Of a DNA stretch of 63,722 nucleotides, positions 8,830 through 39,052 are shown piece after piece. The notes beneath the pieces were generated by a model. That model saw only the letters and a list, made by a program, of their open reading frames with translations. It was not told where the DNA came from and did no database searches. Origin of the DNA: an uncultured Chromatiales bacterium. Its GTDB lineage: Bacteria; Pseudomonadota; Gammaproteobacteria; Steroidobacterales; BM003. The DNA lies in assembly GCA_937128475.1 (NCBI GenBank), contig CAKZML010000025.1:1-63722 (forward strand), read 5' to 3'. Position numbers and translations under genes: made by a program. Within the stretch, counting starts at the first letter, position 1, and each line of letters starts with the position of its first letter.

Positions 8830-8845
8830 AGCAAGACCCGTGCCA
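8830..8845 (-). promoter_or_regulatory. Sigma-54 -24/-12 promoter motif
   Basis: The minus strand reads TGGCAC-GGGTC-TTGCT with GG-N10-GC spacing, about 45 nt upstream of the ATG at 8784. Confidence 0.75.
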
Positions 8846-8975
8846 GCTTCGGAAATCGGCGTGAATGTGGTTTTTCCCCGCAGGATGGCAACGCTGGCGG
8901 CAAAGTGATTTGCATTCTGCGTCTGGGACGCGGGAAACTCCCGGGAACCTCGGAATTCCACAGATTTCCCTATTT

Positions 8976-8991
8976 TGGCACAGAACTTGAT
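8976..8991 (+). promoter_or_regulatory. Sigma-54-like motif with an imperfect -12 element
   Basis: TGGCAC-AGAAC-TTGAT has correct spacing, but -12 is GA rather than GC. It lies about 25 nt upstream of the ATG at 9016. Confidence 0.3.
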
Positions 8992-9015
8992 AGTGGAGGT
9001 ACAGGTAAGGAGTTT

Positions 9016-10395
9016 ATGGAAGCCAAATATTTCATTTTTATGGGCGCCACACTGGTATTCATACCGGTGGCGTCGTGGTTTGGAATCCGCTACAGATGGG
9101 CGGAGCGGGCGATTGTGGCCGCCGCATTCTTCTCCACCAGTTACCTGATCGATATCAACCTGGTGTCCATGGAGCTGTACCGGGGCGATACCCGGGGCTT
9201 TGAATTCGGGGTCACCGACTGGATGATCATTTCTCTGATCATCATCATGATCCGGTCGCCCCGCTGGCAGAATCGCACCCTGGAATTATTCCCTCCAAAC
9301 GCGGCGCCCATCATGATGTACATGGGAGTCGCCTTGCTTTCCGCCGTTACGGCTTACGTGGGAATCTACTCCGGGTTCGGCCTGTTCAAGCTTGTGCGGG
9401 CGATCGCCGTGTACTGGGTGGCCTACAATTATCTGCGCAACGAGGAGGACCTGGAGTTCTTCCTGTGGATACTCGCGGCGATTGTTTTCATGGAGTTCAT
9501 TCTCACACTGAAACAACGCGCTACCGGGATATACCGGGCCCAGGGCAGTACCCCTCATTCCAATACCCTCGCCCTGTACATCAACATGATAAATATGATC
9601 TTCATGTCATTTGTGATGAATGACGGTCGCAAGCACTGGAGACGATACGTATACCTGGCGGTGCTGGGCATGGGCACCCTGATCGTCCTGGCAACCTTCT
9701 CTCGCGGAGCGCTGGTGATGATGGTGGGTTGCTATGGGCTGGTAATTGGAATATCCCTTGCGCGTACTCCGAAGGCGAGGAAGTTCCTCATGGTGGGCAT
9801 CATGATGTTGGCTGCCATACCTGTGGCAGCAGTCGTGCTGCCATCGATTGTTCACCGCTTCCTCACCGCGCCTGTTGATGCGGAGGAAAGCCGGCACCAG
9901 GCGAATGAGGCCGCCTATGCCATGGCGAACAATCATATATTCGGGGTTGGGATTAATAATTACTCTCACGTCATTAACGAAACCGCCTACTCGCGATTCA
10001 TCCCGTTCGAGGGTGATCGCGGAATTGTCCACAACATATACCTGTTGCACGCCTGTGAGATGGGCTGGCTGGGCATGCTGGTCTTCCTGGTGATGATAGG
10101 CAATGGCATGTGGTTGGGAATTCGGCAGTTGTTTAGTCGAACCGATGATCCGCCTTCCTGGATGGCCCTGGGGATTGTTATCGGCATGCTTTCGCTGTGG
10201 ATTCAGTCCTTGCTGGAATGGGCGTTCCGCCAGACCTATCTGACCGTCGAGTATTTCATGCTGGCAGGTTTTCTCGCAGCCATGCCCCGGGTCGTGGCGG
10301 CCACTCGCAAGCAGAAACGCAAACGGTTAATAGCCACACTTTTGCTGGCCCAGGCGGCTCAAGCCCCGCGGCCCGTGGCGCCGGCCTCTACCTGA
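9016..10395 (+). CDS. O-antigen ligase/polymerase family (Wzy-like) membrane protein
   Basis: Polytopic membrane protein with a Wzy_C-like segment (TFSRGALVMMVGCYGLV). The start is at the ATG at 9016, preceded by AGGTAAGGAG. Confidence 0.7.
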   Translation: MEAKYFIFMGATLVFIPVASWFGIRYRWAERAIVAAAFFSTSYLIDINLVSMELYRGDTRGFEFGVTDWMIISLIIIMIRSPRWQNRTLELFPPNAAPIMMYMGVALLSAVTAYVGIYSGFGLFKLVRAIAVYWVAYNYLRNEEDLEFFLWILAAIVFMEFILTLKQRATGIYRAQGSTPHSNTLALYINMINMIFMSFVMNDGRKHWRRYVYLAVLGMGTLIVLATFSRGALVMMVGCYGLVIGISLARTPKARKFLMVGIMMLAAIPVAAVVLPSIVHRFLTAPVDAEESRHQANEAAYAMANNHIFGVGINNYSHVINETAYSRFIPFEGDRGIVHNIYLLHACEMGWLGMLVFLVMIGNGMWLGIRQLFSRTDDPPSWMALGIVIGMLSLWIQSLLEWAFRQTYLTVEYFMLAGFLAAMPRVVAATRKQKRKRLIATLLLAQAAQAPRPVAPAST

Positions 10396-10401
10396 GTTTT
10401 C

Positions 10402-12384
10402 CTACTGCAGGGATTTTCCTGGTGGCAGCCACACTTGTACTCGACCGCTATCCGGGAACTGGAATTCATGGGCCAGAATCAGCCCGGGCATGCCGGTATT
10501 CAGGCTCGGAAGTAACTCCGGGTTGAAGCGTTCCAGGTAGTCCTCATACAGCACCAGGGCAGATCCGCTGGCCAGGGTGGCCTGGACCAAATCCCCAGGG
10601 TTGTCGGTCCATGGCCGGGGTTCAGCCCGTCGCCCTGCCCAGAATGCACTGGCAGTCACATACCCGTATCCGTCACCGCTGAGGGCCACCTCCGCAGGCA
10701 TGTGAGTCTTCAGCCATTCACCGACCTGCCTGTGATAGCCGCGGGTTTTCATGGAATGACTGGCAAGCAGGGGCAGGACCACGAGCAGGCTGATCAACAT
10801 GGCCGCAGTGGGGGCGCGTCGCAGGGAGTCGCTTCGTGACGGGCTGAAGACGGCGTTTAGCCAGCGCCCGGCAGGCATTAATGCAGCGGCCGAGAATACG
10901 ATGGCTCCGATCAGGGTGGGAAACAGCATCCGCGGTTCCAGTTGCATGAACGGGTAAAACAGCAACGGCCATGCGCTAAACAGCAACAATGGCCAGGCTG
11001 GATCTCTCCCGGATTCTCTACGCGGATAGACAAGGGGCAGCAGCAAGGCTATGAGGAAAAATGGCGAAAGGATCATTCCAGGAAGGCGCTCGGCGGTGTA
11101 GCGCAGGTTTCGGATCCAGCGCTGCAGGGCTGGCTCTGGGGGTTGCGCAGGCATTTCGGCCAGGCCATAGGTTTCACGGGCTGCCGCTTGTGGGTCCAGC
11201 ATTTCCACGTGCTGTCGACCCAGGTTAGTGCTCTTTCTGAGTAATCCGTGGTCCTGCCAGATCATTTCGTTAGCCGCCGCGTAAGCGACGATAATCGCCA
11301 GGCAAATCAAGCCAACCTTGATACAGGCTGGTCCCAGGTCGGCGATCCGGTCTCGGCCCAGGTAAAGACCGGTGAGCATGGCAAATCCGGCGAAGACGAT
11401 GGCCTCGTTGCGAACCAGTATCCAGCCAGCCAACCCCAGTCCTGCTGCAATAATTGCGAGCAAGTTGCGTGGTCTGTTCCAAAGGGTGCAGATGCCCCAT
11501 AACGCCAATACGGCGCAACACAGGTAAAAAGTTTCCGCATATCCGTTTACAGAATATTCAACCAGCCTGGGGTGCAAGGCGGCGATGATTCCCGCGATCC
11601 GGGCCGCGGTGTAGCCGTAGAGTCGCCGGGTGAGGTCGAAGACGATGGCAACCAGTAGCAAGCCGGGTACCAGGCTGGCGAGTACCAGTGCGGCGTATTG
11701 GCCAAGTCCTGCGGCCACCAGTCCCGCCTGCCAGAAATCAAACAAGCTGTGCCAAAAAGAGTCCGCCACACTGGCCTGGCCATGACCGATAAACCAGGCA
11801 ACCCAGGAATAGTTAATTGCGTCGCCATAGGCAACCGGTGCGGCCCAGACAAACCAAAGTCTTGCGAGCAGGCCCAGGGCCAGGATGCCTGACAACCACT
11901 TCCAGGCACCTTCAGGCAATTCTGTGCCTGGCAACGCCTCACGCGCCTGCTGCTGGCGAGCATCCTTGAATACCCAGATCCGATAACTCAGGAAGTTGAT
12001 GGCCACTGCGCTGATGACACTGCACAGCCGGGCGGCGTTAAGCAGGGCCAGGGAGGGCATCTCGGCGACCAGGGGAAGGTAGCGCATCATGAATAAGAAG
12101 ACTGCTGTGCTAAGAGCCATGCCCAGCGCCGTAGCCAGTATGAACCTGCCTGCCACCCGGGGTCCCTGGGACTGACCGCTGAAGGACCAGCGGGAGTTAA
12201 GTAAATAGGAATTCGCTGCTGCGGCCGAAAAGGCTGCCACAGCGATCAATGCCAACTGCGTCGTGGTTGAAGGCTGGAGCAGGAAGAACAGCGCATTGGT
12301 AATGCCAAAGTCGATGACAGTGTTGAGGATGCCAACGATGCCGAATCGTGCCGCGCTTAGACGAATGGGTTGGGCGTTTTGCAT
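10402..12384 (-). CDS. GtrA-like domain fused to a GT-C (ArnT/PMT, GT39-like) glycosyltransferase
   Basis: The N-terminal ~130 aa match the GtrA pattern (FGIVGILNTVIDFGITNALFFLL...YRIWVF). This is followed by about 10 TM segments and a C-terminal soluble domain, as in ArnT/PMT_2 enzymes. Confidence 0.65.
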   Translation of the reverse strand: MQNAQPIRLSAARFGIVGILNTVIDFGITNALFFLLQPSTTTQLALIAVAAFSAAAANSYLLNSRWSFSGQSQGPRVAGRFILATALGMALSTAVFLFMMRYLPLVAEMPSLALLNAARLCSVISAVAINFLSYRIWVFKDARQQQAREALPGTELPEGAWKWLSGILALGLLARLWFVWAAPVAYGDAINYSWVAWFIGHGQASVADSFWHSLFDFWQAGLVAAGLGQYAALVLASLVPGLLLVAIVFDLTRRLYGYTAARIAGIIAALHPRLVEYSVNGYAETFYLCCAVLALWGICTLWNRPRNLLAIIAAGLGLAGWILVRNEAIVFAGFAMLTGLYLGRDRIADLGPACIKVGLICLAIIVAYAAANEMIWQDHGLLRKSTNLGRQHVEMLDPQAAARETYGLAEMPAQPPEPALQRWIRNLRYTAERLPGMILSPFFLIALLLPLVYPRRESGRDPAWPLLLFSAWPLLFYPFMQLEPRMLFPTLIGAIVFSAAALMPAGRWLNAVFSPSRSDSLRRAPTAAMLISLLVVLPLLASHSMKTRGYHRQVGEWLKTHMPAEVALSGDGYGYVTASAFWAGRRAEPRPWTDNPGDLVQATLASGSALVLYEDYLERFNPELLPSLNTGMPGLILAHEFQFPDSGRVQVWLPPGKSLQ

Positions 12385-12388
12385 GGGT

Positions 12389-14158
12389 CTACTCTAACGC
12401 GAGACTGGCTTCGCGGGCGCCGGATTCTTCGGAATTGCGTTTGAAAAAACCGGTGTTGTGTTGTCTTATCCTGAGAATGGCGAACGCCATCCGGGCGCTG
12501 TCACGCAGCGGTCGCAGTTTGGATCCTGCAACTTCATGCCATTGAATGGGCACCTCGGTAATAGCGTAACCAAGTAACTGGGCGCGATAAAGCACCTCGA
12601 CATCGAACGCCCAGCCCTGCTCGGTCAGGTTGTTGAACAAGTGCCTGGCAACGTCCTGTCGGAATCCTTTGAAGCCACACTGGGTATCCCCCACGCCGGG
12701 CACCGCGAAAAAGTTCACCAGCCGGTAAAATACCATTCCCAGCAGTTGGCGCAGGGCGCGGCGATTTCTCTCCAACTCCGGCGCCTTGAGGATTCTTGAT
12801 CCCACCGCAACTTCAGATCCGGACTCGAGAACCGGCAGTAATTTATCGATTTCCTGGGCCGGGGTTGAGCCGTCTGCGTCACTGAATATGATGTATCGCC
12901 CCCGGGCTTCCTGGATGCCTCGCATCACCGCAGAGCCCTTGCCGGAATTTTGCTCCAGCCGTATCGCCTTGATATGTGAATCTTTGGCCTGTTCTGCCAG
13001 GACGATATTCATGGTGTTGTCCGTGGAGCCATCGTCTACCACGATGATTTCCCAGAGGTACCTTTTGTCGGCCAGGTGCCGTTGAACCTCCCCCAGGTAG
13101 CGGGGCAGGCGCTGTTCTTCCTGGTAGGCAGGGATAACTATGGAGAGCTTTAACGGTGCCCGTTCAACTTCCGGGGTTGCCGGCCAGCCACCCCTGGGCC
13201 TTTGTGAGCCGAGTATGCGGCTGACAATCGTGTGCTGGAACAGGTCGGAGACCCGTAATTTGTAACGCGAAAGGTAGAGCAGCCCCAGCCCTGCCAGGGT
13301 TGTCAGTCTACAAAACATGAAAGTGCTCAGCAGCAGCATGGCCGTATCCGACAGGCCGCTAGTGAAAAGCAGCAGGGCGGGCAATTGGACTATGCCCAGC
13401 CCAAGCGGCAGCCCGGGTCGATGGGTCACCAGCGCCACGGCCAGCCAGAGGCCCATTGCCGCATTAGTGGGTAGCATTCCGTTGCTTGCCCAGGCAAATA
13501 CCATGGCTTCGACCGCCCACAGGAAAACGGTTGTAAAGCAAGTGGCCAGGTAACCCCGTGGTTTGACGGTACGTTGTTTAAGCGTCTTGTGGCCCCAGAG
13601 CAGTGTGCCGATGCCGACTATCAGCGCGACAACTGCCGCCAGGGTGTGGCCGTCTACTGACAGCCATAGTGTTGTCGCCAACATGGCGCTGGCAGGGAAC
13701 GAGGCGGCCTGGATATCTTGCCAACTCGATGCCAGGGCTCTGTCCTGTCCGGTTTCCCGCATTTGGAATGCTGTCTGGAATCTGCGGGAGGGCAGCAGAG
13801 GGCTGATCCAGCGTACCAGTTGAAAAATGAACTCGAATGATATGCCCTGGTGCAGCGAAAGCTTTGTACCAAAAAATACTTTCCGACGGAAACCATTCAG
13901 CAGCAAGGGCAGTACCGCCAGCATGATGAGCCCGGGCAGCGCCCGGTCAGGTGCCAGTTGGAAGAGTGTCGCGTTGGTCAAATGAGCAAGAAACAGCCAC
14001 AGGGCCAGGCCTGCTCCGGCGAGCATGACCGTGGCAACTGCCAACCCACCGGAAGTTTGGTGTTGTGGAGGTGTGCGGCGTGCTGAAGTCACTGAGTAGT
14101 CATCCCCTTGTCTTTGTCGAAATCCTTCTTGATTTCGACTTCGGTGGTCACTTTGCAA
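12389..14158 (-). CDS. Flippase-like (LPG_synthase_TM/UPF0104-type) membrane domain fused to a GT2 polyprenyl-phosphate hexosyltransferase (GtrB/ArnC/DPG-synthase-like)
   Basis: The C-terminus reads LSIVIPAYQEE...IIVVDDGSTDNT...NSGKGSAVMRGI...IIFSDADGS...AVGSR (GT2 DXD type). The N-terminal ~330 aa are polytopic. The start is uncertain: TTG at 14158, or an in-frame ATG at 14026. Confidence 0.7.
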   Translation of the reverse strand: MQSDHRSRNQEGFRQRQGDDYSVTSARRTPPQHQTSGGLAVATVMLAGAGLALWLFLAHLTNATLFQLAPDRALPGLIMLAVLPLLLNGFRRKVFFGTKLSLHQGISFEFIFQLVRWISPLLPSRRFQTAFQMRETGQDRALASSWQDIQAASFPASAMLATTLWLSVDGHTLAAVVALIVGIGTLLWGHKTLKQRTVKPRGYLATCFTTVFLWAVEAMVFAWASNGMLPTNAAMGLWLAVALVTHRPGLPLGLGIVQLPALLLFTSGLSDTAMLLLSTFMFCRLTTLAGLGLLYLSRYKLRVSDLFQHTIVSRILGSQRPRGGWPATPEVERAPLKLSIVIPAYQEEQRLPRYLGEVQRHLADKRYLWEIIVVDDGSTDNTMNIVLAEQAKDSHIKAIRLEQNSGKGSAVMRGIQEARGRYIIFSDADGSTPAQEIDKLLPVLESGSEVAVGSRILKAPELERNRRALRQLLGMVFYRLVNFFAVPGVGDTQCGFKGFRQDVARHLFNNLTEQGWAFDVEVLYRAQLLGYAITEVPIQWHEVAGSKLRPLRDSARMAFAILRIRQHNTGFFKRNSEESGAREASLALE

Positions 14159-14251
14159 ATCATTTTGCAGTTGGCCGCCTGCTATAAGGCCGTTCCTGTG
14201 GTGCAGATTGCTAGCACAGCCGGGCTGTTAGACAGGCCATCTACAGGTAAC

Positions 14252-14267
14252 AGCAAGCATCATGCCA
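14252..14267 (-). promoter_or_regulatory. Sigma-54 -24/-12 promoter motif
   Basis: The minus strand reads TGGCAT-GATGC-TTGCT with GG-N10-GC spacing, upstream of the 14158 operon. Confidence 0.7.
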
Positions 14268-14300: not shown

Positions 14301-14316
14301 TGGCCCGGGACTTGCA
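14301..14316 (+). promoter_or_regulatory. Sigma-54 -24/-12 promoter motif
   Basis: TGGCCC-GGGAC-TTGCA with GG-N10-GC spacing, about 85 nt upstream of the ATG at 14401. Confidence 0.65.
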
Positions 14317-14400: not shown

Positions 14401-15279
14401 ATGGGTAAGGACGTGAAAAAAGTCAGTATTGTGATGCGGTCGTATAACGACGTGGGTGTCATTCGCCAGACCCTTCAGGCAGTAAAGTCCCAGACCTTCA
14501 AGGACTTTGATCTGTGGAATTTTGATTCGACCTCAAATGATGGAACCCTTGAGATTATTCGGGAATACAACGTTCCGGAGTGTATCAAGCTAAATGACAG
14601 CGCCAACTACAATCCGGGTCGGATACTTAACGAGGCGGTGGCCGCCTGTACCGGCGAAATCATTGTTTTTATTAATTCTGATGCGACGCCGACCTCGAGT
14701 ACCTGGCTGGAGGACTTGATCAAGCCCTTCAATGACCCTGAGGTAGGCACGGTGTATGGACGCCAGGTGGCGAGGCCCGATTGTCGCAGTCTGTTTGTTA
14801 AAGATACTGAGCGTGCTTTCGGCGACGGCAAGGTTGCCAACTCCTGGGTGCACTTTTTCTCCATGGCGAATTCAGCCATCCGCAGAGACCTGGTGGAGAC
14901 GGTTCCCTTCGAGACCCGCATTCAATATTCCGAGGATATCGAGTGGAGTTACCGGGTGAAGCGCATGGGCAAGAAAGTGGTCTATGTCCCAAGCGCCGAG
15001 GCCATGCACTCACACAACTATACGATCAAGCAGTCGTACAAGCGTCACTTTGGCGAAGGTATGGCTGATTCATGGATATTCCGTAGAGGTGAGGTTAACT
15101 CCTCTTTGCTGCGATATTTTCTGGCCCCTGCCGTTATGGAAATTTTCCGGGACATGGTTTGGGGTATAAGGACAGGCTCTGTGGATGCCTTGATTCACAG
15201 CGTTCCACTGCGAGTCACCCAGAAATGGGCTCGCTGGCGTGGTTACGCCCAGGGCAGGAGGGTTTATGGAGCAGGTTAA
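14401..15279 (+). CDS. GT2-family glycosyltransferase
   Basis: VSIVMRSYND...SQTFKDFDLWNFDSTSNDGT...FINSDATP has the GT-A DXD pattern. The start is taken at the ATG at 14401. Confidence 0.75.
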   Translation: MGKDVKKVSIVMRSYNDVGVIRQTLQAVKSQTFKDFDLWNFDSTSNDGTLEIIREYNVPECIKLNDSANYNPGRILNEAVAACTGEIIVFINSDATPTSSTWLEDLIKPFNDPEVGTVYGRQVARPDCRSLFVKDTERAFGDGKVANSWVHFFSMANSAIRRDLVETVPFETRIQYSEDIEWSYRVKRMGKKVVYVPSAEAMHSHNYTIKQSYKRHFGEGMADSWIFRRGEVNSSLLRYFLAPAVMEIFRDMVWGIRTGSVDALIHSVPLRVTQKWARWRGYAQGRRVYGAG

Positions 15280-16417
15280 TAGAACAGTGTTCACGCTGGG
15301 GAGGCAGCCGGGAGCGGAAGATCGCATTCGGCATGACCAGGAAATTGTCACCCGGGCGGTGGAAAAAGCAGTTCCCGAGAAGCAGATGAAGGGGCTGATT
15401 CTTGCCGGAGGTTATGGTCGCAGAGAAGGCGGCTATCGCAAACATGGCGAAAAGTATTTTCCGATGAATGACTACGACTATTTCATCGTCATCGATGGCA
15501 GTAAGGAAGAGTGCCTGGCATTCCATGAAAAGCTTGTTCACCTTGGGCATGAATTAACCCGGGAAGTAGGCGTGGAAGTAGATTTCTTTGTACTGCGCCA
15601 TGCGGAACTGCCACGCCTTGAATACTCCCTCATGTATGCCGAGCTCAAGTGGGGGCACGTGGTGTTACTGGGTGATCCACTGGTTCTTGCGGATATGGCT
15701 CCCATGCCCCTTGAAGGCCTGGACTTGTCAGAGTTTTCTCGATTGTTGATGAACCGGGGCTCGCTTTTATTGTTGAACAGTGCGGCGCTTGGAAAGAATG
15801 AGGTGAAAGGTTTTGAAGCACGCGAAGAGTTTGCGCGCTACCTGGACAAAGCGATTGTGGCCTGCGCGGATGTGCGACTGGCGGTTGCCGGTACTTACAA
15901 TACCTCTGTGCTTGTCAGACAAGAAAAGCTGGCCGAATTAACCTGGGAAGGCGATCAGGAATTCAGGGAGGACTTTCACAGGGCGATGGATTCACGTTAC
16001 GGACCCGAGGCCATCCTGATTCCCGAGGGTCAGGAACGGGCTGTACTGGATCGGGTTGTGGGGCAATGGCTCCAGGCACTGTCCCACCTGGAGACCGCTC
16101 GCCTTGGGAGTGCCCCAGTTTGGTCGAGCTATGCGATGCCCCGGGTCAGCAAAGGCCAGGGAAGAAAAGGCCTGTTGGGAATATTCAGAAACCTGTTGGT
16201 CAATATTCGTGATTTTGGTTTAAAGGAATCACTGAAGAATATTGGTTGGATACGACGCTATCCCCGTGAGCGCTTGTTGTCGGTATTGCCCGGGTTGCTG
16301 AACCCTGCACTGGAAGTTCCGCTTGATGCCCAAGCCAAGGCATTGGCGGTGGGCGGCGCCCAGGAAAGAGATGTTTTGATAAAGCGATACCTGGAGCTTT
16401 GGGGACGTTATTCCTGA
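15266..16417 (+). CDS. Uncharacterised protein with an N-terminal Pol-beta-type nucleotidyltransferase-fold signature
   Basis: LILAGGYGRREGG(x14)NDYDYFIVI...VEVDFFVL matches the hG[GS]...DxD...D signature. AGGAGG precedes the ATG at 15266, and the gene overlaps the upstream GT2 by 14 nt. Confidence 0.5.
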   Translation: MEQVNRTVFTLGRQPGAEDRIRHDQEIVTRAVEKAVPEKQMKGLILAGGYGRREGGYRKHGEKYFPMNDYDYFIVIDGSKEECLAFHEKLVHLGHELTREVGVEVDFFVLRHAELPRLEYSLMYAELKWGHVVLLGDPLVLADMAPMPLEGLDLSEFSRLLMNRGSLLLLNSAALGKNEVKGFEAREEFARYLDKAIVACADVRLAVAGTYNTSVLVRQEKLAELTWEGDQEFREDFHRAMDSRYGPEAILIPEGQERAVLDRVVGQWLQALSHLETARLGSAPVWSSYAMPRVSKGQGRKGLLGIFRNLLVNIRDFGLKESLKNIGWIRRYPRERLLSVLPGLLNPALEVPLDAQAKALAVGGAQERDVLIKRYLELWGRYS

Positions 16418-18570: not shown

Positions 18571-18578
18571 GAGGCGCG

Positions 18579-29697: not shown

Positions 29698-29763
29698 GTG
29701 TAATCTCCAGGTTGTCCACAAGTTGGTAATTTCTGGCTTGTTGCCTTGCCGCTTGTTTATTAA

Positions 29764-29779: not shown

Positions 29780-29896
29780 GTTTATACAAAATAAATAAAA
29801 ACAATAGGTTATGATTTTACTGTGAGCATCCAAAAGCCAATATGCAACGCCTACAGCAGGTTGGTTCAAAATCGTAATGTAATCATCAAGGTTGGC

Positions 29897-30304
29897 TTAT
29901 TGCTGAATGCGTTTTGACATGCAGAGGACGTTGGAAGAACCGGTTCGGGTCATGGATAGATCGTCCATCCAGGCGCGTATGATTGCGAGACCGCGTCCTC
30001 TTTCGCTATAGGGATCAGGCAGTTCGTCGCTGTTTGAGCAAGGTTCCCTGATTTCGGGTTCCCGACCCTCGTCAATGATCTCAATTTTAACTTGCTGGTT
30101 TTCTTCCCAGGCGCTCATCGTGACATTGCCTACCTGGCCCTCGTAGGCGTGCTCAATACTATTATTGATCGCCTCAACGACGCAGGTCTTGACCTTGAAG
30201 GCCTCAGTCTGGTCCAGTCCGAAACTGATGCAGGCTCGCTCGATCCAGTCCCCGGCCCTGGGGATATCGGCAGCCTCTAATTTGACAAGCATCATTTTCT
30301 TCAT
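29897..30304 (-). CDS. RsbW/SpoIIAB-like serine kinase (HATPase_c-type anti-sigma regulatory factor)
   Basis: EAINNSIEHAY...ERGRGLAIIRAWMDDL is the Bergerat-fold N and G boxes in a 135-aa protein. Confidence 0.75.
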   Translation of the reverse strand: MKKMMLVKLEAADIPRAGDWIERACISFGLDQTEAFKVKTCVVEAINNSIEHAYEGQVGNVTMSAWEENQQVKIEIIDEGREPEIREPCSNSDELPDPYSERGRGLAIIRAWMDDLSMTRTGSSNVLCMSKRIQQ

Positions 30305-31655: not shown

Positions 31656-31671
31656 AGCAAAAGCCGTGCCA
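31656..31671 (-). promoter_or_regulatory. Sigma-54 -24/-12 promoter motif
   Basis: The minus strand reads TGGCAC-GGCTT-TTGCT, just upstream of the REC-PP2C gene. Confidence 0.75.
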
Positions 31672-31824
31672 ACCGACAGAACTGCTTGGTTTTGCGATTC
31701 CGCGGCCTGAGACAGTGGTTGGAATCGCATTTTGCGACTTTGGCCTTGTCGTTTTGCCACTATTGATGAGTAATGCTCCCTCCCTCCTGCCCATAGTGTT
31801 GTCCCCGCGCGGGGTTCCGGCTTT

Positions 31825-31840
31825 TGGCACACAACTTGCT
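31825..31840 (+). promoter_or_regulatory. Sigma-54 -24/-12 promoter motif
   Basis: TGGCAC-ACAAC-TTGCT, divergent from the motif at 31656-31671 and upstream of the small ORF and hybrid kinase genes. Confidence 0.75.
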
Positions 31841-31919: not shown

Positions 31920-32279
31920 GTGTGCAGTGATGTGCCATCGTTGCAACCTGGAGCGCCGGCAGTGAGTATCCGCCGCTACCTGCTCGGATTAGCCGTCATC
32001 CTCCTGTTCGGTGGATTGGCCGTGATTAATTCTACCCAGAACAGTCAGGAAAGCTATCTCGTTCGCCAGGAGGCGTTGATGAATCAGGGCGAGTTATTTC
32101 TGCAGGTCCCGGTAGTGGCCTTGAGTGAAAATGTCGATGAGTTATTACAGTTTGAGACAAGGAAGAGCAACTTTGATGCCTGGCTCTCAAAGCCATTAAA
32201 TGCACAGGAACTGATAAACATCATAGAGAAATGGCGCCATCTCAAACACAGTTTTGTGGTGAGGCGCCTGGTTTCGTGA
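31920..32279 (+). CDS. Small single-TM protein whose C-terminus resembles the last third of a receiver domain (possible remnant)
   Basis: The likely start is the GTG at 31962 (MSIRRYLLGLAVILLFGGLAVIN, a TM segment). The tail VPVVALSEN...FDAWLSKPLNAQELINIIEKW parallels IPIIALTAH...[21 protein letters not shown] in the adjacent kinase. Confidence 0.4.
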   Translation: MCSDVPSLQPGAPAVSIRRYLLGLAVILLFGGLAVINSTQNSQESYLVRQEALMNQGELFLQVPVVALSENVDELLQFETRKSNFDAWLSKPLNAQELINIIEKWRHLKHSFVVRRLVS

Positions 32280-32441
32280 CTTTCGGGATTGCTGAGGCAT
32301 TGACTGCAAACTGAATTATTCACACCAGATGTAGATAAATAGGGTTGAGTTGGGTGGACCAAAAATTAGCTAAGACGGCCCGCGGCGAATCAGGTTTCGA
32401 TTCCCCGGGGCTGTGGTTTTTCGAATTGGCGGAGGTAAGCC

Positions 32442-35306
32442 GTGAGCGATGAAAATGGCCTGGTAGTTTGTGACGAATTGTTATCGATTGTTCTATCGGT
32501 GCAGCGAGAATTTATAGTGTCGCAAGATGCCGTTAGCGCCATACGCATGTTGAACCAGGCGGTGACATCCATCACGGGCAGTTCTGCTGCGTTTTTATGC
32601 CATCTGGAAGATGACTCCGAAGGCCTGACTCGTTTGAAGCTTTTTGATGCTGTTCACGGGACATCGGACAGCCGATCACTCGGTAGAAAATTAGGTTTTT
32701 ACAGTGCCGGCCTGCCGTTGACGGACATACCGTTGCCAGTCACTGAAGTACTGAAATCCGGGATTATCAAGTATCTGAATGATCCCGAAGAAATACGTGC
32801 GGCAGGGCTGATGCCGGGCATAGAGGAGTGTCAGTCCTGGGCCGCGATTCCCCTGGCGCCGGGTGGAAACACAATTGGCGTAATGATTATTGCCGACAAG
32901 CAAGGTGGCTACGACACTGAGATGCTTGAAAAGCTAAGGCCGCTTTTTCGGGTGGCAGGTCATTTTCTGCTGGCCTACCGGGAGCGAGAGGAGAGTTATC
33001 AAGTTGAGAAATCCCACGCTTTCTACAGGAATCTTTATGACTCGCTGCTGGAGCACTCTCTAGATTGCATAGTGAGCATGACATCTGACGGCAACGTCGT
33101 GGAGTGGAATCCGGCGGCAGAAGCGACATTCGGCTGGACCAGGGACGAGGTGATGGGTAGGACATTGTCCGAAATGATCGTTCCGCACGGGATGAGAAAA
33201 GCACACGGTGATGGCCTTGCTAAATACCTGGAGACCGGCGAAGGCCCCGTGATCGACCAGCGAATTGAGGTTCCTGCGTTGCGCAAGGATGGTGTCGAGA
33301 TTCCCGTTGAGTTAGCCATTATGGCTTCTCAGTTGGATAAAGGCGTGTTGTTTACGGCGCACATCCGGGATGTCACCGCGGCACGCGCGTTTAAGAATGC
33401 CATCCAGGAAGCAAGAGATGCGGCCGAGGCATCCAACAAGGCCAAGACTAATTTTGTGGCCACAGTCAGCCATGAAATCCGGACCCCGATCAACGCAATC
33501 ATGGGTGCAATGGGATTGCTCGAGTCATTGGATCTCGATAGCCGTAATCGAGCGATTCTGAATACCGCAAAGCATTCCGCGGAGGCATTGTTGAGCCTGG
33601 TGAATGACGTTCTGGATTTTGCCCGGATTGAGTCAGGAAAGCTGGATATTGAATTGGCCCCGGTCCGATTAAGCGAGATGTGTGACGGGGTTACCCAGTT
33701 ATTTACAAACCGCGCCCAGTCTGGCGGGACGAAGTTGGCAAGCGTTATTCACCAGGGGCTTAATGGTGAACTCTTGCTCGACTCGGGCAAGCTCAGGCAG
33801 GTTCTTCTTAACCTGGTCGGCAATGCTGTCAAGTTTAGTGAGAAGGGCTCCGTGAGACTGGATGTCGGGTTAGAAAACGGTATGTTGAAGTTCGAGATCA
33901 GGGATACGGGAGTAGGAATTTCTGAGTCCGATCAGAAGGAGCTTTTCAAAGAGTTTGTGCAAGTTGGTACCCGGCGCGTGAGTGGGGGGACTGGACTTGG
34001 GTTAAATATTTCCAGGCGGTTGGTTGAATTCATGGGTGGCAAGATTGGGGTGGCCAGCGTCCCCGGCGGGGGAAGCAACTTCTGGTTTACCCTGCCGTTT
34101 GATTCCGAAGCCAGCCAGGACCCCGGTATTGAAGCCGAAGGCAAGACAATACTGCTTATTAACGAGGGCAATTTTTACATCCGTGCGATAGCGGACCAGT
34201 TGCGGGCCCTGGGTATCAATGTAAGGGTGGCGCGAGATTTTTCGCGTGCCAGGGAAATGCTTTATCAAGGCAGCCCGGTGAGCCTGGTCGTATTGCCGCT
34301 TGAGGAAGGCTCAGGGGATTATTCGATTGACGCTGTCCGGGCTATTACTCGGGTTTGCCAAGAGGCGCATATACCGGCACTGGCCATGTCGGAAAAGGCC
34401 AATGCCACGGACGAGTTGCTGGGTCACAGTATTGGTGTAGCGGCGATAATAGACGCGCCACTATTGCACGAAGATATCAAAGCCATCATTTCCAGCGCGG
34501 ACTCTGGCCCCCAGGATGTTGAGAAAACCTGGTCAATGCGTATGGACGTGAGTGCCCCTGGTAAGAAGTTCATTCGCGTATTGTTGGCTGAAGACAGCCA
34601 GGCTAATAGCCTGGTGATGTCAGAACTGCTTCGTCGCGCCGGCTATGAGGTGGATGTGGTTGGTGACGGGAAAGAGGCTGTAACCGCGGTGAAAACACTT
34701 CCCTATGACGTGGTTTTGATGGACGTGGATATGCCCATAATGGACGGGCTGGACGCCACTCGTGCAATCCGCAAACTGGGTGGTGAGATGGCGAAAATTC
34801 CTATCATCGCACTGACTGCGCATGTGGTAACCGGGTTTAAGGAGGTCGTGCTGAAAAGTGGCATGGACGATTACCTGAGCAAGCCTGTGGATAATAAGTT
34901 GATGAATCAAATGATTGATTTATGGGCATCAAAACGCAAGGAGGGCATGGCTCCCCCTGACAATGATGGCCTGGTAGACGACAGTGTTCTCCAGCAACTT
35001 GCGATAGACACTTCTGAAGAAATGGTACCCCAGATGCTCAAGGTCTTTATCAATGAGTTGACGATGCGCAGTGAGCGTATTGCGGACGCGATAAAGCACC
35101 GGGATTTATCTGCTCTTGCCAAGGAGGCCCATGCGCTGAAGAGCAGTTCAGCGACTTTCGGCGCGGCGGCGATTGCCGAGCATGCCCGCAAGATGGATGA
35201 TGCCGCCAGGGAGGGTAGGGAGGAGCTCGCGCTGAAAAGCGCCAAGCTAGTTCTTAGCTTGATTGAGCCCACGGTAAATAGCTTGAACTCGCGTATCGAA
35301 GGCTGA
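32442..35306 (+). CDS. Soluble hybrid sensor histidine kinase: GAF, PAS, HisKA, HATPase_c, degenerate receiver, receiver, Hpt
   Basis: H-box [13 protein letters not shown]-boxes ([18 protein letters not shown]), true receiver (VLLAEDSQ...[13 protein letters not shown]...LSKP) and Hpt ([13 protein letters not shown]). No TM segments. GTG start preceded by GGAGG. Confidence 0.85.
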
Positions 35307-35673
35307 CTTGCTGATGCTATTGTTACCCGAGCCAGAAGATTGGCTGGTTAACGTGGGTTTCGATCTTGGTGAGTTATGAGTGATGCGCCCATGCGTTTGG
35401 CATTAATCGTATAAGATAGTGATTCTCAGGCGGTGGCTTTCAGGGCCTATCTCGAAAGGGATGGCGCCCCGGCAGATAGCTTGAACTCGCGTATCGAAGG
35501 CTGACTTGCTGATACTATTGTTACCCGAGCCAGAAGATTGGCTGGTTAACGTGGCTTTCGATCTTGGTGAGTTATGAGTGAAGCGCCGATGCGATCGGTA
35601 CTAATCGTAGAAGATAGTGATTCCCAGGCTGCGGCTTTCAGGGCCTATCTGGAAAGGGATGGCACAACGGTAG
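35278..35673 (+). repeat. Tandem duplication, 2 x 198 bp, spanning the kinase 3' end, the intergenic region and the regulator 5' end
   Basis: Unit 1 is 35278-35475 and unit 2 is 35476-35673. By eye I count about 17 mismatches, only 2 of them in the first ~98 nt. Unit 1 holds a decayed copy of the regulator start (ATG at 35376, MSDAPMRLALIV, stop). Confidence 0.9.
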
Positions 35674-36992
35674 ATCGCGTTTCCAGTGGCGAGGAAGCGT
35701 TGAATTACCTTGCCTGCAAGCTGCCGCAGGCTTTGTTGCTGGATCTCGAATTGCCAGGGATAAAAGGCATGGATGTCCTGAATCATGTCGTCAGGGAAGG
35801 GCTGCCGGTCCCCGTTATTGTCGTTACTGACCACAGTTCTACCGATGTGGTGGTCCAGGCCATGAAATCTGGCGCCTTCGATTTTCTCACCAAGCCGTTT
35901 CGCGCTGATCGCCTGAGGGTCACCCTGCAGAACGCCATTCGCCAGGAAGAACTTTCCGGCCTGGTAGACAGCTATAAAGAATTTGAACGGGAACGGTTTC
36001 ACGGGTTCATCGGCGCATCGGCGCAAATGCAGGCCCTGTATCGGATCATTGAGAACGTGTCCAGTTCCAAGGCCAGTGTCTTCATCAAGGGTGAAAGTGG
36101 CACGGGTAAAGAGTTGTGCGCCGAAGCCATTCACAGGGAAAGCCCGAGGCATGGTGGTCCTTTTATCCCTGTGAATTGTGCAGCCATTCCTCGGGAGCTA
36201 ATGGAGAGCGAGATATTCGGTCACGTTAAGGGTGCGTTTACCGGGGCGGTCAGGGCCCGGGATGGGGCGGCGACCCAGGCGGACGGCGGCACCTTGTTCC
36301 TGGACGAAGTCTGCGAGATGGACATGGACCTGCAGAGCAAGTTGCTGCGGTTCATCCAGACCGGGACGTTTCAGAAGGTCGGCGACAGCAAGCCCACAAC
36401 AGTGGATGTGCGTTTTGTCTGCGCGACCAACAAGGACCCATTAGTTGAGATTGCCAAGGGCCGATTCCGGGAAGACCTGTACTACCGCCTGCATGTGATT
36501 CCCGTGTCATTGCCGCCTTTGCGTGAGCGCGATGATGATCAGCTGCTGATTGCCCGTAACTTCCTGAAGCGTTATTCAGCGGAGGAAGGCAAGGACTTTG
36601 CTAGTTTCACACGCGAGGCGGAAGCCGTGCTGGCCAGCTATTCGTGGCCAGGAAATATTCGGGAGCTACAGAACCTGATCCGTCACACGGTGGTTCTGAA
36701 CAAGGGCGATGAGGTTACCCCGCAGATGCTTCCGTCTCCCTTGGCGGAGATGGCCGCTGCCATCCGGGCGGGGCAACCGCAAGAGCTTGCTGACCAATCC
36801 GAATCGGCACAGCGTGTTGTGCCGGCAGAGAGCGGCGATAGCGACCTGATCCGGCCCTTGTGGGAAGTCGAGCGAGACACGATTGAACGGGCTATCAGCC
36901 TGTGTGAAGACAATATTCCCAAGGCGGCCGCCTTGCTGGGTATCAGCGCCTCCACCATCTATCGGAAAAGAAAGAGCTGGGGCATCGAGTAA
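35574..36992 (+). CDS. Sigma-54-dependent enhancer-binding response regulator (NtrC/SypG-type: REC, AAA+, Fis-type HTH)
   Basis: Receiver (LLLDLELPG), Walker A GESGTGKE, the GAFTGA loop (KGAFTGAV) and a C-terminal HTH (AAALLGISASTIYRK). Confidence 0.9.
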   Translation: MSEAPMRSVLIVEDSDSQAAAFRAYLERDGTTVDRVSSGEEALNYLACKLPQALLLDLELPGIKGMDVLNHVVREGLPVPVIVVTDHSSTDVVVQAMKSGAFDFLTKPFRADRLRVTLQNAIRQEELSGLVDSYKEFERERFHGFIGASAQMQALYRIIENVSSSKASVFIKGESGTGKELCAEAIHRESPRHGGPFIPVNCAAIPRELMESEIFGHVKGAFTGAVRARDGAATQADGGTLFLDEVCEMDMDLQSKLLRFIQTGTFQKVGDSKPTTVDVRFVCATNKDPLVEIAKGRFREDLYYRLHVIPVSLPPLRERDDDQLLIARNFLKRYSAEEGKDFASFTREAEAVLASYSWPGNIRELQNLIRHTVVLNKGDEVTPQMLPSPLAEMAAAIRAGQPQELADQSESAQRVVPAESGDSDLIRPLWEVERDTIERAISLCEDNIPKAAALLGISASTIYRKRKSWGIE

Positions 36993-37022
36993 GTCTCTCG
37001 ACACCCCAGCTCTGGTTCTCGT

Positions 37023-38537
37023 TTACCACTTCCACTTGTCAGGCGTATTGTTCTTGATGGCGTTCAAATTTGGACGCATGTACCAATCCTGCTTGGTAGA
37101 ACCATTGGATTTTATGAACTCGACGAACTCAGGGTAGGCCTCGCCCAGGTCGATGTACTCGATGGGGGTGAGCCAATCCTCCGGCATGATCATTGCGTAG
37201 GGATAGTTTGATGCGTCCCGGTAACCCGACAGCCCGTCCGCGGTATTGCGTGAAAGAGGATGAACGGCAGGATTGCCATCCAGGTGGATCTCGTACTTTG
37301 TGTTGTAGACGTAAAGGTACGGATCGTAAGGCGCGGCAGGCATTTGCGACACGTTCATCGGGCTGTTTAATGTCACGTGGAAGGTGAAGCGGTGACCGTC
37401 GATAATCGCCTGGTCGCGCTCGGTGTTGACAAAGTTTCGGCCCGGATCGACCCACAAGGTAGCGGTGTGTTCAAAAACACTCAGATTGAGAGGGCCGGTG
37501 AGGTTTATGGTTCTCGGGTAGCCGCTTGCCGGGACTGCGCTGCCTGGGGCGTAAAGGTTTAGCACACCTGATCCGGAAGTGGATCCGGGCAGGTTTATTC
37601 TCAGGAACCAGTCGTGATCAAAGCCTCCGCCGCGGGCCACCAGGTAGCCCACGCCGCCTATCCCCACGACCTTGTTTGCATTGTTCAGTTCAAGGTACAC
37701 ACGGTAGCCGACAGTGAGGTCATTAAAGTCGTAATCGCCCGGGTTTGGGAACTGGTCCTCGTAGGTCACCATGTAATACTTGTCCACCGCGGGAAGGTAG
37801 ATGGTGCTGGAGGGAAGCAATTCAATCGCGCTGGTTTGAATGACCAATGGTGCTTCGGCCTGGCCGGCCTGGATGCCATCCAGGTAGGCTGCGTCGGAGG
37901 CCGTGACTATGGCAACGTCTTCGAAACCATTTGTGTAGTCATAAAATGCTTCCGGATCTCCCAGGGCGACGTTGGTGACCATAAGGGTCACTAGCAGTCG
38001 CACAGAACTGGCGCCAGACAGGCTCTGCGGCACTTCAACTCTCAAGGTGGCGTCAAAGTCTGAGCCGTAGATATCGGAACTCGTATTGGAGGTGATTCGG
38101 CTGGAGCCGCTATCGCCAATCAGGGTGTATTTCATGCTCCGGGCCGTGCTCGTGCCCTCGGCCACCGAGGCCTGGGTGCGGGTGCTGAATTCTGTGAATT
38201 CATAGGTCACTCCGGAAATGACGGCGACCACCTTGGCGCTTTTGACCGTGATTCCCTGGGAGCTGGCTTTTTCAGTGCCGTTGGCGGCCTCATTCACATC
38301 CACCGCGAATACCAGCCCGCTGCCGTTGTTCTGGCGTAGCCACTCGACGGTGGCGGCCGTGGGATTGGGTTGTTTGCTACCGTTGGCGGCACTGAACAAG
38401 TTGATAGTGCCGGTTCCCGAAGTAACCACATCTTTGAGTTTGGTCGACATATAGGTCTGGGCCTGGGCGGGCAATGCAATAGTCATCGCAACCAGAGTCA
38501 GCCCTGTGCTGATTGCCAGGGTCTTGAAAATGTTCAT
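37023..38537 (-). CDS. Secreted LruC-domain (DUF4842-type) protein
   Basis: Signal peptide (ALPAQA/QT), the hallmark FPNPGDYDFNDLTVGYRV motif and a C-terminal PYDPYLYV...EIHL...YPYAMIMPEDW...AYPEF pattern. Confidence 0.65.
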   Translation of the reverse strand: MNIFKTLAISTGLTLVAMTIALPAQAQTYMSTKLKDVVTSGTGTINLFSAANGSKQPNPTAATVEWLRQNNGSGLVFAVDVNEAANGTEKASSQGITVKSAKVVAVISGVTYEFTEFSTRTQASVAEGTSTARSMKYTLIGDSGSSRITSNTSSDIYGSDFDATLRVEVPQSLSGASSVRLLVTLMVTNVALGDPEAFYDYTNGFEDVAIVTASDAAYLDGIQAGQAEAPLVIQTSAIELLPSSTIYLPAVDKYYMVTYEDQFPNPGDYDFNDLTVGYRVYLELNNANKVVGIGGVGYLVARGGGFDHDWFLRINLPGSTSGSGVLNLYAPGSAVPASGYPRTINLTGPLNLSVFEHTATLWVDPGRNFVNTERDQAIIDGHRFTFHVTLNSPMNVSQMPAAPYDPYLYVYNTKYEIHLDGNPAVHPLSRNTADGLSGYRDASNYPYAMIMPEDWLTPIEYIDLGEAYPEFVEFIKSNGSTKQDWYMRPNLNAIKNNTPDKWKW

Positions 38538-38998
38538 AACAGGAACTCCCCAAATACGATGTCGTCAGAGCTTGAATCAGAAAATACTTCGTAAAAGAGA
38601 CTGGTCTCGGCCAGCGGTACATGGACCGGTATAGAGAAATTGTCCGACGGCGAAACTTCACCCAGGAACAGGACTTGCTGGCCTGCGCCGGTTAACGGAT
38701 CAGGGCTGTCGGAGCCGGTGATCTTTACAAAAATCCGGGTTCCAACAAATCCGTTGTTGGTGACAATTGCAGGCACCGGAACGCTGGGCGTGGCGGGTTC
38801 AAAATTCTCGAACTTGGCGGTGCTGGGCACAGGGTTCTGACATAGCGAGTTCACGTTGGTATTTGAGCATTCATTATCGACCGGAGGTGGGATGACTACG
38901 GTATCTTCCGAGCCTCCTCCTCCGCCACAGGCGCTTAGCGCAAGCAGGGCGGCGGTAATAAAGATGACCCGTGTGGGTGTGTTGGGCAGGGTATTCAC
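38534..38998 (-). CDS. Small lipoprotein of unknown function, translationally coupled to the LruC-domain gene
   Basis: Lipobox LALSAC followed by a GGGGS linker, with a 4-nt overlap with the downstream gene. Confidence 0.6.
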   Translation of the reverse strand: MNTLPNTPTRVIFITAALLALSACGGGGGSEDTVVIPPPVDNECSNTNVNSLCQNPVPSTAKFENFEPATPSVPVPAIVTNNGFVGTRIFVKITGSDSPDPLTGAGQQVLFLGEVSPSDNFSIPVHVPLAETSLFYEVFSDSSSDDIVFGEFLL

Positions 38999-39036
38999 GG
39001 CTTTCCTCCGGTGAAATTTCCAATACTGATTGACTA

Positions 39037-39052
39037 AGCAATATCCGGGCCA
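39037..39052 (-). promoter_or_regulatory. Sigma-54 -24/-12 promoter motif
   Basis: The minus strand reads TGGCCC-GGATA-TTGCT with GG-N10-GC spacing, about 40 nt upstream of the ATG at 38998. Confidence 0.65.

Follow-up and report, generated by a model that had tools for sequence, protein, structure and literature searches.

Introduction

In Vibrio fischeri, SypG acts together with sigma-54 to drive four syp operons and also the bmp and bal matrix genes (PMC10441365). SypE both phosphorylates and dephosphorylates SypA (PMC4517449), and in V. parahaemolyticus the scv locus is ScvE-dependent (PMC8941931). Liu et al. (2022, PMC8941931) describe loci of the scv/syp type from eight orders, Chromatiales among them, with a total of 28 genera and 148 species; loss, fusion and rearrangement of genes are frequent in these loci, and some scv loci are without SypB and many are without SypE (PMC8941931). 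SypG can also act via LuxO boxes at qrr1 (PMC10162802). The published LuxO site is TTGCAWWWTGCAA (PMC10162802), and the SypG site (SE) is given as TTCTCANNNTGMDWN in the same paper. Here, we describe a stretch of 63,722 bp, one whole contig (CAKZML010000025.1) of a metagenome-assembled genome (MAG), which is referred to as the window. The organism is an uncultured gammaproteobacterium, probably a member of the Chromatiales, and the 34 kb of the window from 5.3 to 39 kb are likely to constitute an exopolysaccharide locus of the syp/scv type.

This locus appears to be split into eight, probably nine, short transcription units, each of which would be transcribed from its own putative sigma-54 (-24/-12) promoter; on the sequence evidence, we hold this division to be the probable one. 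The reading that we favour, with good though incomplete confidence, combines these elements: a syp/scv-type locus with a sigma-54 promoter for every unit, in which a locally encoded activator of the LuxO/SypG family would act via upstream boxes. Compared with the known Vibrio syp/scv system, the locus is a variant that has diverged; it does not constitute a new kind of system. An initial annotation of the window had implied more novelty than is warranted, as divergent syp/scv-like loci controlled by a sigma-54 activator are already widespread (PMC8941931). The general picture is unchanged: it has already been published that syp-like loci are under sigma-54 control and that they are widely distributed in a mosaic manner. 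What can be added is an extension of the syp/scv regulatory logic beyond the Vibrionaceae, from which nearly all knowledge of it comes, to an uncultured lineage and its relatives, and a map of nine candidate promoters and six candidate box regions.

Comparison with described systems

The window and V. fischeri syp have a number of elements in common. Both are polysaccharide loci divided into operons, each with a sigma-54 promoter (putative in the window) and an upstream enhancer, and in both a LuxO-family activator of REC-AAA+-HTH architecture lies beside an Hpt-bearing hybrid kinase. One operon starts with the gene for a STAS protein that has a phosphorylatable serine, and RsbW-like kinase and PP2C phosphatase activities stand under a receiver domain. 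At the domain level, both contain Wza-type and Wzz-like proteins, a flippase, a Wzy/ligase-like protein, an acetyltransferase, several GT4 and GT2 enzymes and a Bac_transf priming enzyme. Matrix genes for secreted proteins or lipoproteins seem to be co-regulated as well, bmp and bal in V. fischeri and those for a lipoprotein and LruC in the window.

The syp-like logic proposed in the initial annotation holds for the shared logic and the domain set, but not for the SypE counterpart or the enhancer. SypE is a single protein in V. fischeri, whereas a REC-PP2C protein and an RsbW-like kinase are separate in the window, in all its relatives and in the Shewanella locus L074. The enhancer of the window is a LuxO-type palindrome, whereas V. 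fischeri has SE. Furthermore, there are eight or nine promoters in the window against four in V. fischeri syp, and three divergent promoter pairs where V. fischeri syp runs in one direction. V. fischeri has the OmpA-like SypB, whereas no OmpA domain is present among the window open reading frames (ORFs). The structural Syp proteins of Vibrionaceae are, where detectable, only 23-31% identical to those of the window. Additional elements are a GtrA/GT-C protein, a GT2 with a novel N-terminal half, a GH9 hydrolase, a type I phosphodiesterase, a nucleotidyltransferase (NTase)-like protein, a PEGA lipoprotein, LruC and a WecG fusion on the priming enzyme. Four of these (GtrA/GT-C, GH9, NTase-like and LruC) had been annotated as non-syp cargo. 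They are indeed absent from V. fischeri syp, but the cargo label is not appropriate, because they are a conserved core in every relative sampled. Since gene order is nearly the same in five lineages, the GtrA/GT-C, GH9, phosphodiesterase and 392-aa genes are, by this comparative measure, core members of the locus type.

In the Enterovibrio and Grimontia syp loci (L048, L057 and L061), two sigma-54-like motifs of divergent orientation are present ~1 kb downstream of sypG (in L048, for instance, at 12509(-) and 12878(+)), so that such pairs are not unique to the lineage of the window. Grimontia L061 carries an exact SE ~70 bp upstream of a sigma-54 site. The published survey is protein-based (ScvC, ScvL, ScvO) and leaves promoters and enhancers unmapped outside Vibrio; the one-promoter-per-operon layout and the LuxO-type boxes of the window are not described there (PMC8941931). 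A LruC homologue is found near the activator in syp-like loci of Agarivorans and Aliagarivorans, both scv-positive genera.

Vibrio LuxO is the closest family and the closest solved structure, and it shares with the window a nearly identical site architecture (5-N3-5 palindrome, TTGCA half-site), sigma-54 promoters (putative in the window) and an Hpt domain upstream of the receiver. However, LuxO targets the qrr small RNAs, whereas the motifs of the window precede protein-coding matrix operons. The activator of the window falls below the LuxO equivalog cut-off, there is no LuxU, LuxPQ or CqsS context, and the half-sites often read TCGCA instead of TTGCA. In Shewanella atlantica and S. canadensis (L074 and L075), the STAS, RsbW-like kinase and REC-PP2C genes are divergent from a hybrid kinase and a LuxO-family activator, as in the window, and this module contains TTGCAAAATGCAA and TCGCAAAATGCAA boxes with a sigma-54 motif in between. 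Unlike the window, the two loci have no homologue of the window polysaccharide proteins within their 10-kb flanks and only one sigma-54 motif of at least 13 bits; identities to the window are 30-53%. The PrsK-PrsR pair of PEP-CTERM/exosortase systems differs as well: the activator scores 374.6 bits on TIGR02915 against a cut-off of 502.6, and the window contains no exosortase or PEP-CTERM genes.

Putative sigma-54 promoters

The heading of the initial annotation counted six motifs plus a weaker one, while its text listed seven plus one. Eight sites exist, and all eight quoted 16-mers lie at the positions and on the strands given, intergenic and correctly oriented (Table 1). Full matches to TGGCAC-N5-TTGCW, rightly held to be rare by chance, number four in the window against 0.10 expected, and none of 100 shuffles reaches four. 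The looser pattern TGGC-N7-TTGCW is found 10 times against 1.97 expected, a count that is likewise reached in none of 100 shuffles. A position weight matrix (PWM), which was made by hand after a Barrios-type consensus and is not a curated matrix, detects eight sites of at least 14.5 bits against 0.82 expected (with a maximum of four in 300 Markov simulations) and five sites of at least 16.9 bits against 0.10 expected.

With both strands considered, the eight sites that score best are all located in the non-coding 7.07% of the window, and seven of them lie 39-94 nt 5' of a gene start on the same strand. Matches in coding sequence (7283, 11657 and 61889) score below these eight, and the flanking pilus, pga and housekeeping regions of the window contain no motif of at least 14.5 bits. 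As a positive control, the same PWM detects sites at operon starts or boundaries in Vibrionaceae syp loci. The weak site at 8976(+) ranks only 14th and yet lies 26 nt before the wzy start. The scan also brought up a probable ninth promoter at 21848-21863(-), which had been missed in the initial annotation. The eight motifs are very probably real sigma-54 promoters.

Other candidates were rejected. The intergenic motif at 40831-40846(-), TGGCAGGCCAGTTGCA, is the remaining one of the eight best; it scores 15.5 bits and is considered a chance match: there is no downstream gene on that strand, the motif is part of a palindrome, and the sister contig has TCGCAG for TGGCAG. The motifs at 22005(+), 11657(-), 7283(-) and 61889(-) were discarded because of wrong orientation or coding position. 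The palindrome at 40831-40846 reads CAACTGGC..GCCAGTTG, and a TATAAT for the radical-SAM gene is found nearby.

Table 1. Putative regulatory sites and genes of the locus, in window coordinates
Feature	Position	Strand	Sequence	Remarks
Putative sigma-54 promoter, WecG/Bac_transf-NTP-transferase operon	8830-8845	-	TGGCACGGGTCTTGCT	17.9 bits
Putative sigma-54 promoter, wzy	8976-8991	+	TGGCACAGAACTTGAT	12.1 bits; non-canonical -12
Putative sigma-54 promoter, GT2-GtrA/GT-C operon	14252-14267	-	TGGCATGATGCTTGCT	17.0 bits; in all five lineages
Putative sigma-54 promoter, GT2-392-aa operon	14301-14316	+	TGGCCCGGGACTTGCA	14.9 bits
Candidate ninth sigma-54 promoter	21848-21863	-	TGGCCCGATTTCTGCT	13 nt before Wzz-like ATG (21834)
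Putative sigma-54 promoter, STAS-led structural operon	29764-29779	-	TGGCACACTGCTTGCT	17.3 bits; kept in L081/L082, L084/L170, L171
Putative sigma-54 promoter, REC-PP2C/RsbW-like kinase operon	31656-31671	-	TGGCACGGCTTTTGCT	17.9 bits; kept in L081/L082, L084/L085
Putative sigma-54 promoter, kinase-activator operon	31825-31840	+	TGGCACACAACTTGCT	17.3 bits; kept in L081/L082, L084/L085
Putative sigma-54 promoter, lipoprotein-LruC operon	39037-39052	-	TGGCCCGGATATTGCT	14.6 bits; kept in L081/L082, L083 as TGGCCTGCGAATTGCT
LuxO-like box	8910-8922		TTGCATTCTGCGT	between divergent wecG and wzy promoters
Inverted repeat, candidate enhancer	14154-14169		TGCAAA-N4-TTTGCA	~140 bp upstream of 14301 promoter
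LuxO-like box	21948-21960		TGGCATTTTGCAA	upstream of candidate ninth promoter
LuxO-like box	21978-21990		CTGCATATCGCAA	upstream of candidate ninth promoter; 30 bp from preceding box
Degenerate box	29835-29847	-	TTGCATATTGGCT	56-68 bp upstream of STAS promoter; 6.4 bits
Perfect palindrome	31725-31737		TCGCATTTTGCGA	candidate shared enhancer between divergent regulatory promoters
Perfect palindrome	39160-39172		TCGCAATTTGCGA	~110 bp upstream of LruC-operon promoter
WecG + Bac_transf fusion (priming transferase)	6742-8784	-		Pfam, PDB; ATG 8784; first gene of unit 5327-8784
NTP-transferase/hexapeptide protein	5327-6727	-		Pfam, PDB; second gene of unit 5327-8784
wzy: Wzy_C (O-antigen ligase/polymerase-like)	9017-10395	+		Pfam; ATG 9017
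GT2 with unique N-terminal half	12389-14158	-		Pfam; unit 10402-14158
GtrA + GT-C/PMT_2 fusion	10402-12384	-		Pfam; unit 10402-14158
Second GT2	14401-15279	+		Pfam; unit 14401-16417
392-aa protein with GG...DxD NTase-like motif	15239-16417	+		motif in sequence; unit 14401-16417
Wzz-like protein	19621-21834	-		Pfam; ATG 21834; unit 16408-21834
Wza-type exporter	18579-19628	-		Pfam; unit 16408-21834
GH9 hydrolase	16408-18570	-		Pfam; unit 16408-21834
STAS, type I phosphodiesterase, flippase, hexapeptide acetyltransferase, three GT4, PEGA lipoprotein	22089-29721	-		Pfam; one unit
REC + PP2C phosphatase, 438 aa	30301-31617	-		Pfam, NCBIfam; unit 29897-31617
RsbW-like serine kinase (HATPase_c_2), 135 aa	29897-30304	-		Pfam, NCBIfam; unit 29897-31617
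Kinase remnant, 119 aa	31920-32279	+		in-frame internal deletion of second hybrid kinase; unit 31920-36992
GAF-PAS-HisKA-HATPase-REC-Hpt hybrid sensor kinase (SypF-like)	32442-35306	+		Pfam, NCBIfam; unit 31920-36992
REC-sigma-54 AAA+ (GAFTGA)-HTH_8 activator, LuxO/SypG family	35574-36992	+		Pfam; unit 31920-36992
154-aa lipoprotein (LSAC lipobox) + 504-aa secreted LruC/DUF4842 protein	37023-38998	-		Pfam, TIGR04456, N-termini; one unit

Conservation in related lineages

Relatives were gathered via homologues of the activator, the WecG fusion and the Wzz-like protein, and they are grouped in five lineages. Lineage A pairs the window with its sister contig, at 88-96% DNA identity; lineage B consists of L166/L169 (64-72% protein identity), lineage C of L167 (58%), lineage D of L168, L170, L084 and L085 (46-67%) and lineage E of the MAG CP070833.1, where L171 lies at 0.34 Mb and L083 at 1.12 Mb (45-67%). 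On the left side of the locus, the sister contig is 95% identical and too close for footprinting. Gene order is near-identical across the five lineages, and a -24/-12 motif is present at each equivalent operon start covered by the fetched DNA, with two exceptions (STAS in lineage B and wecG in L166). The motifs of both GT2 promoters are found in all five lineages, that of the STAS promoter in A, D and E, those of the wecG and wzy promoters in A, C and D, those of the two regulatory promoters in A and D and that of the LruC promoter in A and E. In addition, lineages C, D and E have an extra acyltransferase gene with its own putative sigma-54 promoter. This conservation in four further lineages reinforces the sigma-54 promoter reading of the initial annotation.

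Across lineages, the -24 GG and the -12 GC are retained while spacers and flanks have diverged. Departures from the consensus are promoter-specific and conserved between lineages. The wecG promoter has the equivalents TGGCACACGTCTTGCT in L167 and TGGCACAGCTCTTGCT in L168. The wzy promoter corresponds to TGGCACGGAACTTGAT in L167 and TGGCACGGAACTTGGT in L168, with the same spacer and at 25-26 nt from the start codon; the motif TGGCAC-RGAAC-TTG[AG]T is thus found in three lineages and its odd -12 element (TTGAT or TTGGT) is retained. What had been annotated as a weak motif is, on this comparison, a conserved putative site without the -12 GC. Similarly, the variant TGGCCCG...TTGCA of the second-GT2 promoter is retained in five of five lineages. 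The wzy promoter without -12 GC and the conserved weak -24 variants provide natural material on sigma-54 promoter strength within one regulon.

In CP070833.1, the polysaccharide locus at 0.34 Mb keeps its promoters and boxes, although the group of Hpt, activator and LruC genes lies 780 kb away at 1.12 Mb, which fits a trans-acting regulon. There, a stand-alone Hpt protein of 161 aa precedes the activator, with the LruC operon alongside, and no second close activator paralogue is present among the best 120 matches. Activator and structural genes are co-located in lineages A and D. LruC adjoins the activator in lineages A and E, is near it in Agarivorans and Aliagarivorans, and is reduced to a 96-aa remnant in lineage D. 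All matches from a scan of a genome collection with the activator were relatives of 51-60% identity, most of which have no such locus; the scan served only for the Vibrionaceae controls and Shewanella. For one protein of the locus, Methylococcaceae, Thiotrichaceae and Ca. Thiodiazotropha are among the named relatives.

Candidate enhancer boxes

A LuxO-box-like palindrome, T[CT]GCA-N3-TGC[AG]A, lies 55-125 bp upstream of most sigma-54 motifs. The window together with seven relatives (207 kb of DNA) contains 26 box matches with at most one mismatch; 17 of these fall in the -20 to -200 zones, which constitute 2.35% of this DNA, against 0.6 expected; as related sequences are pooled, the nominal p-value overstates independence. 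In an unbiased analysis, the most enriched upstream k-mers are TTTTGC, TTGCGA, TTTGCG and CAAATTG. Boxes are clear at 8.9, 21.9, 31.7 and 39.2 kb, and weaker at 29.8 kb.

Several boxes have counterparts at the same place in relatives. The box at 8910 corresponds to TCGCAAATTGCCA in L168 and TCGCAATCTGCCA in L167, and the palindrome at 31725 to TCGCATTATGCGA in L081/L082 and TTGCAAATTGCAA in L084/L085. The box of the STAS promoter is found as TTGCATTCTGCA[TC] at equal distance in L170 and L171, and the box at 39160 is identical in L081/L082. For the repeat at 14154, L169 has TCGCAAATTGCAA at the equivalent place; as its spacing is unlike that of the other boxes, its designation as an enhancer is weaker. 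An SE-like sequence, TTCTCACATAGCGA, at 39174-39187 adjoins the palindrome at 39160. For the 493-aa gene, the longest ORF has its start at 39078 and would include this palindrome, but gene calls in the sister begin ~200 nt further on, and the box is therefore probably intergenic. The 493-aa gene has no sigma-54 motif of its own.

The SE of V. fischeri was considered as the enhancer and rejected, because it is not enriched (15 matches against 9.1 expected) and is near a promoter only at 39.16 kb. In this activator family, the LuxO-type box may have preceded the SE of V. fischeri as recognition site.

Activator and proposed mechanism

The activator has a Walker A motif and a GAFTGA motif at residue 220, and it is the only enhancer-binding protein encoded in the window according to Pfam. 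Its best family is the LuxO model NF041946 with 628 bits, under the equivalog cut-off of 800 bits; Vibrionaceae proteins in a SypG context reach 644-657 bits on the same model and are thus about equal to it. The best PDB match is LuxO (5ep0). The activator is 52-55% identical to those inside the Vibrionaceae syp loci L048, L057, L061 and L077, and the hybrid kinase shares 28-34% identity with those encoded upstream of SypG in Vibrionaceae loci. In a neighbour-joining tree, the activator groups with uncultured sequences in a clade of their own, apart from the SypG clade of Vibrionaceae; the deep branches of this tree are star-like and poorly resolved. Rfam detects no Qrr or other RNA family in the window, and all motifs precede protein-coding genes. 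As the sole activator of the window belongs to the LuxO/SypG family and the boxes are tied to the promoters, we infer that the promoters are under its control, a view that is well supported. The initial annotation had likewise assumed one local regulator, and its proposal is strengthened by the same palindromes and family assignment.

No sigma-70 promoter or terminator is predicted in the interval between the kinase and the activator; the activator is therefore probably made from the promoter at 31825, which would constitute positive feedback. In the proposed mechanism, the cytoplasmic GAF-PAS hybrid kinase would pass phosphate via its Hpt domain to the receiver of the activator. The latter would then assemble on T[CT]GCA-N3-TGC[AG]A boxes 55-125 bp upstream, one box often serving two divergent promoters, and remodel the closed complexes of sigma-54 holoenzyme. 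This would jointly switch on the structural genes, the secreted LruC protein and the lipoprotein, the partner-switch module and the kinase-activator operon itself. The STAS protein may provide a second, post-transcriptional layer, in which the RsbW-like kinase and the REC-PP2C protein would set the phosphorylation of the DSSG serine, as SypE does on SypA. The motifs with their enrichment and conservation, the association between boxes and promoters and the protein families are direct results, from which the use of sigma-54, the assignment of activator to boxes, the phosphorelay and the partner switch are deduced.

A candidate ninth promoter

The motif at 21848-21863(-) is a probable ninth promoter. 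In lineages B, D and E, an AAA_22 gene is found between the PEGA and Wzz-like genes; it is deleted in the window and the sister contig, where about its last 30 nt are left and a 225-bp gap (21864-22089) stands in its place. Besides the two LuxO-like boxes, this gap holds an AT-rich tract with an IHF-like AATCAGGTAATTA. In the alignment of window and sister, the motif, the boxes and the IHF-like site are conserved islands in DNA of ~80% identity. The AAA_22 and PEGA proteins of the relatives gave no match with loci L001-L080, which include the Vibrionaceae syp loci.

Alternative explanations

A number of observations weigh against a locus under one local activator with a sigma-54 promoter for each unit, in addition to the hand-made PWM and the pooled box statistics. 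The window does not contain rpoN. With four against 4.75 expected, matches to the LuxO consensus with at most two mismatches are no more numerous in the window than by chance; only their placement is above chance, as all four are non-coding and beside sigma-54 motifs. The repeat at 14.15 kb has a spacing unlike the other boxes and lies downstream of one of its two promoters. The 16-mer of the candidate ninth promoter derives from the 3' coding end of AAA_22, encoding ...SWPDSCLLSG in lineages D and E, and the predicted transcription start would be near-leaderless, only ~3 nt before the ATG. Furthermore, the layout is not invariant. In lineage B, L169 has no good motif before STAS. In L166 (9881-10001), wzy is lost and there is no sigma-54 promoter before wecG, where a TGGCAC remnant is found beside a TATAAT, which points to either a swapped promoter or transcription that reads through from the GtrA/GT-C operon.

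The most serious alternative, although unlikely, is that the promoters are real but depend on enhancer-binding proteins (one or several) whose genes lie elsewhere, or in subsets on different activators, with the local protein responsible for a part only, for example its own and the LruC operons. The two perfect palindromes are indeed restricted to the regulatory region and the LruC promoter, the boxes of the structural promoters are degenerate or differently spaced, and in CP070833.1 the activator stays with LruC, apart from the polysaccharide genes; moreover, two activators can share one promoter in V. fischeri (PMC10162802). However, box-like sequences occur upstream of structural promoters in several lineages and at conserved distances, the window encodes one activator only, a second close paralogue from CP070833.1 is missing from the best 120 matches, and the co-location of activator and structural genes is retained in lineages A and D.

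A bolder proposal can be made only tentatively and is doubtful: the locus might represent a distinct, undescribed branch of LuxO-family-controlled matrix loci among uncultured gammaproteobacteria, in which a LuxU/LuxO-like relay is wired directly, via LuxO boxes, to 8-9 sigma-54 promoters with no small RNA. Promoter strength would then be tuned per operon by conserved consensus departures, including the -12 element without GC, and a new near-leaderless promoter would have arisen from the 3' leftover of AAA_22.

Quite improbable is the idea that the activator is the true LuxO of the lineage, with a quorum-sensing phosphorelay (Hpt to LuxO) wired directly to matrix genes without Qrr small RNAs. 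LuxO is both the best family and the best structure match, the boxes are LuxO-like, the stand-alone Hpt ahead of the activator in CP070833.1 resembles a LuxU/LuxO pair, and Rfam families such as Qrr are missing from the window. Yet the score of 628 bits is well under the cut-off of 800, and proteins in a Vibrionaceae SypG context score alike; the sensor is a cytoplasmic GAF-PAS kinase and not an autoinducer receptor, the window contains no autoinducer synthase or receptor, and the tree, star-like in its deep branches, does not establish orthology. Finally, that the motifs are chance matches, or are conserved for other reasons such as sites of another protein, is close to refuted: the motif at 40831 has a good score and is evidently due to chance, and that at 21848 coincides with coding sequence in relatives, but motif enrichment is 10- to 50-fold over shuffles, the sites are intergenic, correctly oriented and 39-94 nt from start codons, -24 GG and -12 GC persist between lineages while spacers vary, and the same PWM detects operon-start sites in bona fide Vibrionaceae syp loci.

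Gene content of the locus and its surroundings

The gene content was read with Pfam and NCBIfam, and with a PDB search for selected proteins. These domain searches confirm the main genes named in the initial annotation, namely the GAFTGA enhancer-binding protein, the Hpt hybrid kinase, the STAS (DSSG), RsbW-like kinase and REC-PP2C proteins, GtrA/GT-C, GH9 and LruC. The pair of WecG fusion and NTP-transferase is also present in L166, L167 and L168, and the Wzy_C gene is placed identically in L167 and L168. The GT2 and GtrA/GT-C pair is kept across L166-L171, and the pair of second GT2 and 392-aa protein in all relatives; for the latter protein, both the Pfam and the PDB search gave no match. 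A metagenome scan with the first GT2 found only the sister contig and generic GT2 matches, because the N-terminal half of this protein is lineage-specific. In L169-L171, the order of the Wzz-like, Wza-type and GH9 genes is identical and that of the STAS-led unit is unchanged. The STAS protein is a single-domain protein with a DSSG serine motif, encoded by the first gene after the promoter at 29764. The lipoprotein/LruC pair adjoins the activator in L081-L083.

In the 119-aa remnant, residues 15-55 align to residues 1-41 and residues 62-119 to residues 606-663 of a 663-aa HisKA-HATPase-REC protein of the sister. This second hybrid kinase is intact in the sister contig, and ~1.7 kb is missing from the window. 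A 198-bp tandem duplication (35269-35664, 91% identity) extends from the last part of the kinase gene into the first part of the activator gene. Its first copy contains a decayed activator pseudo-start with a stop codon; the sister has one copy. Further on, ~170 bp (40611-40783) between the 493-aa ORF and the radical-SAM gene are missing in both sister contigs.

Two other surface or matrix systems are encoded on the contig. A complete pgaABCD operon at 47215-53420(-), with a PgaA barrel/TPR protein, a PgaB deacetylase/GHL13, the PgaC synthase and PgaD, constitutes a second matrix polysaccharide system and is without a sigma-54 motif. The third is a Csu-type chaperone-usher pilus operon at 61-5168(+), which encodes an SCPU protein, a PapD-like chaperone, an usher and another SCPU protein, and is followed by a gene for a small MerR-HTH and receiver protein.

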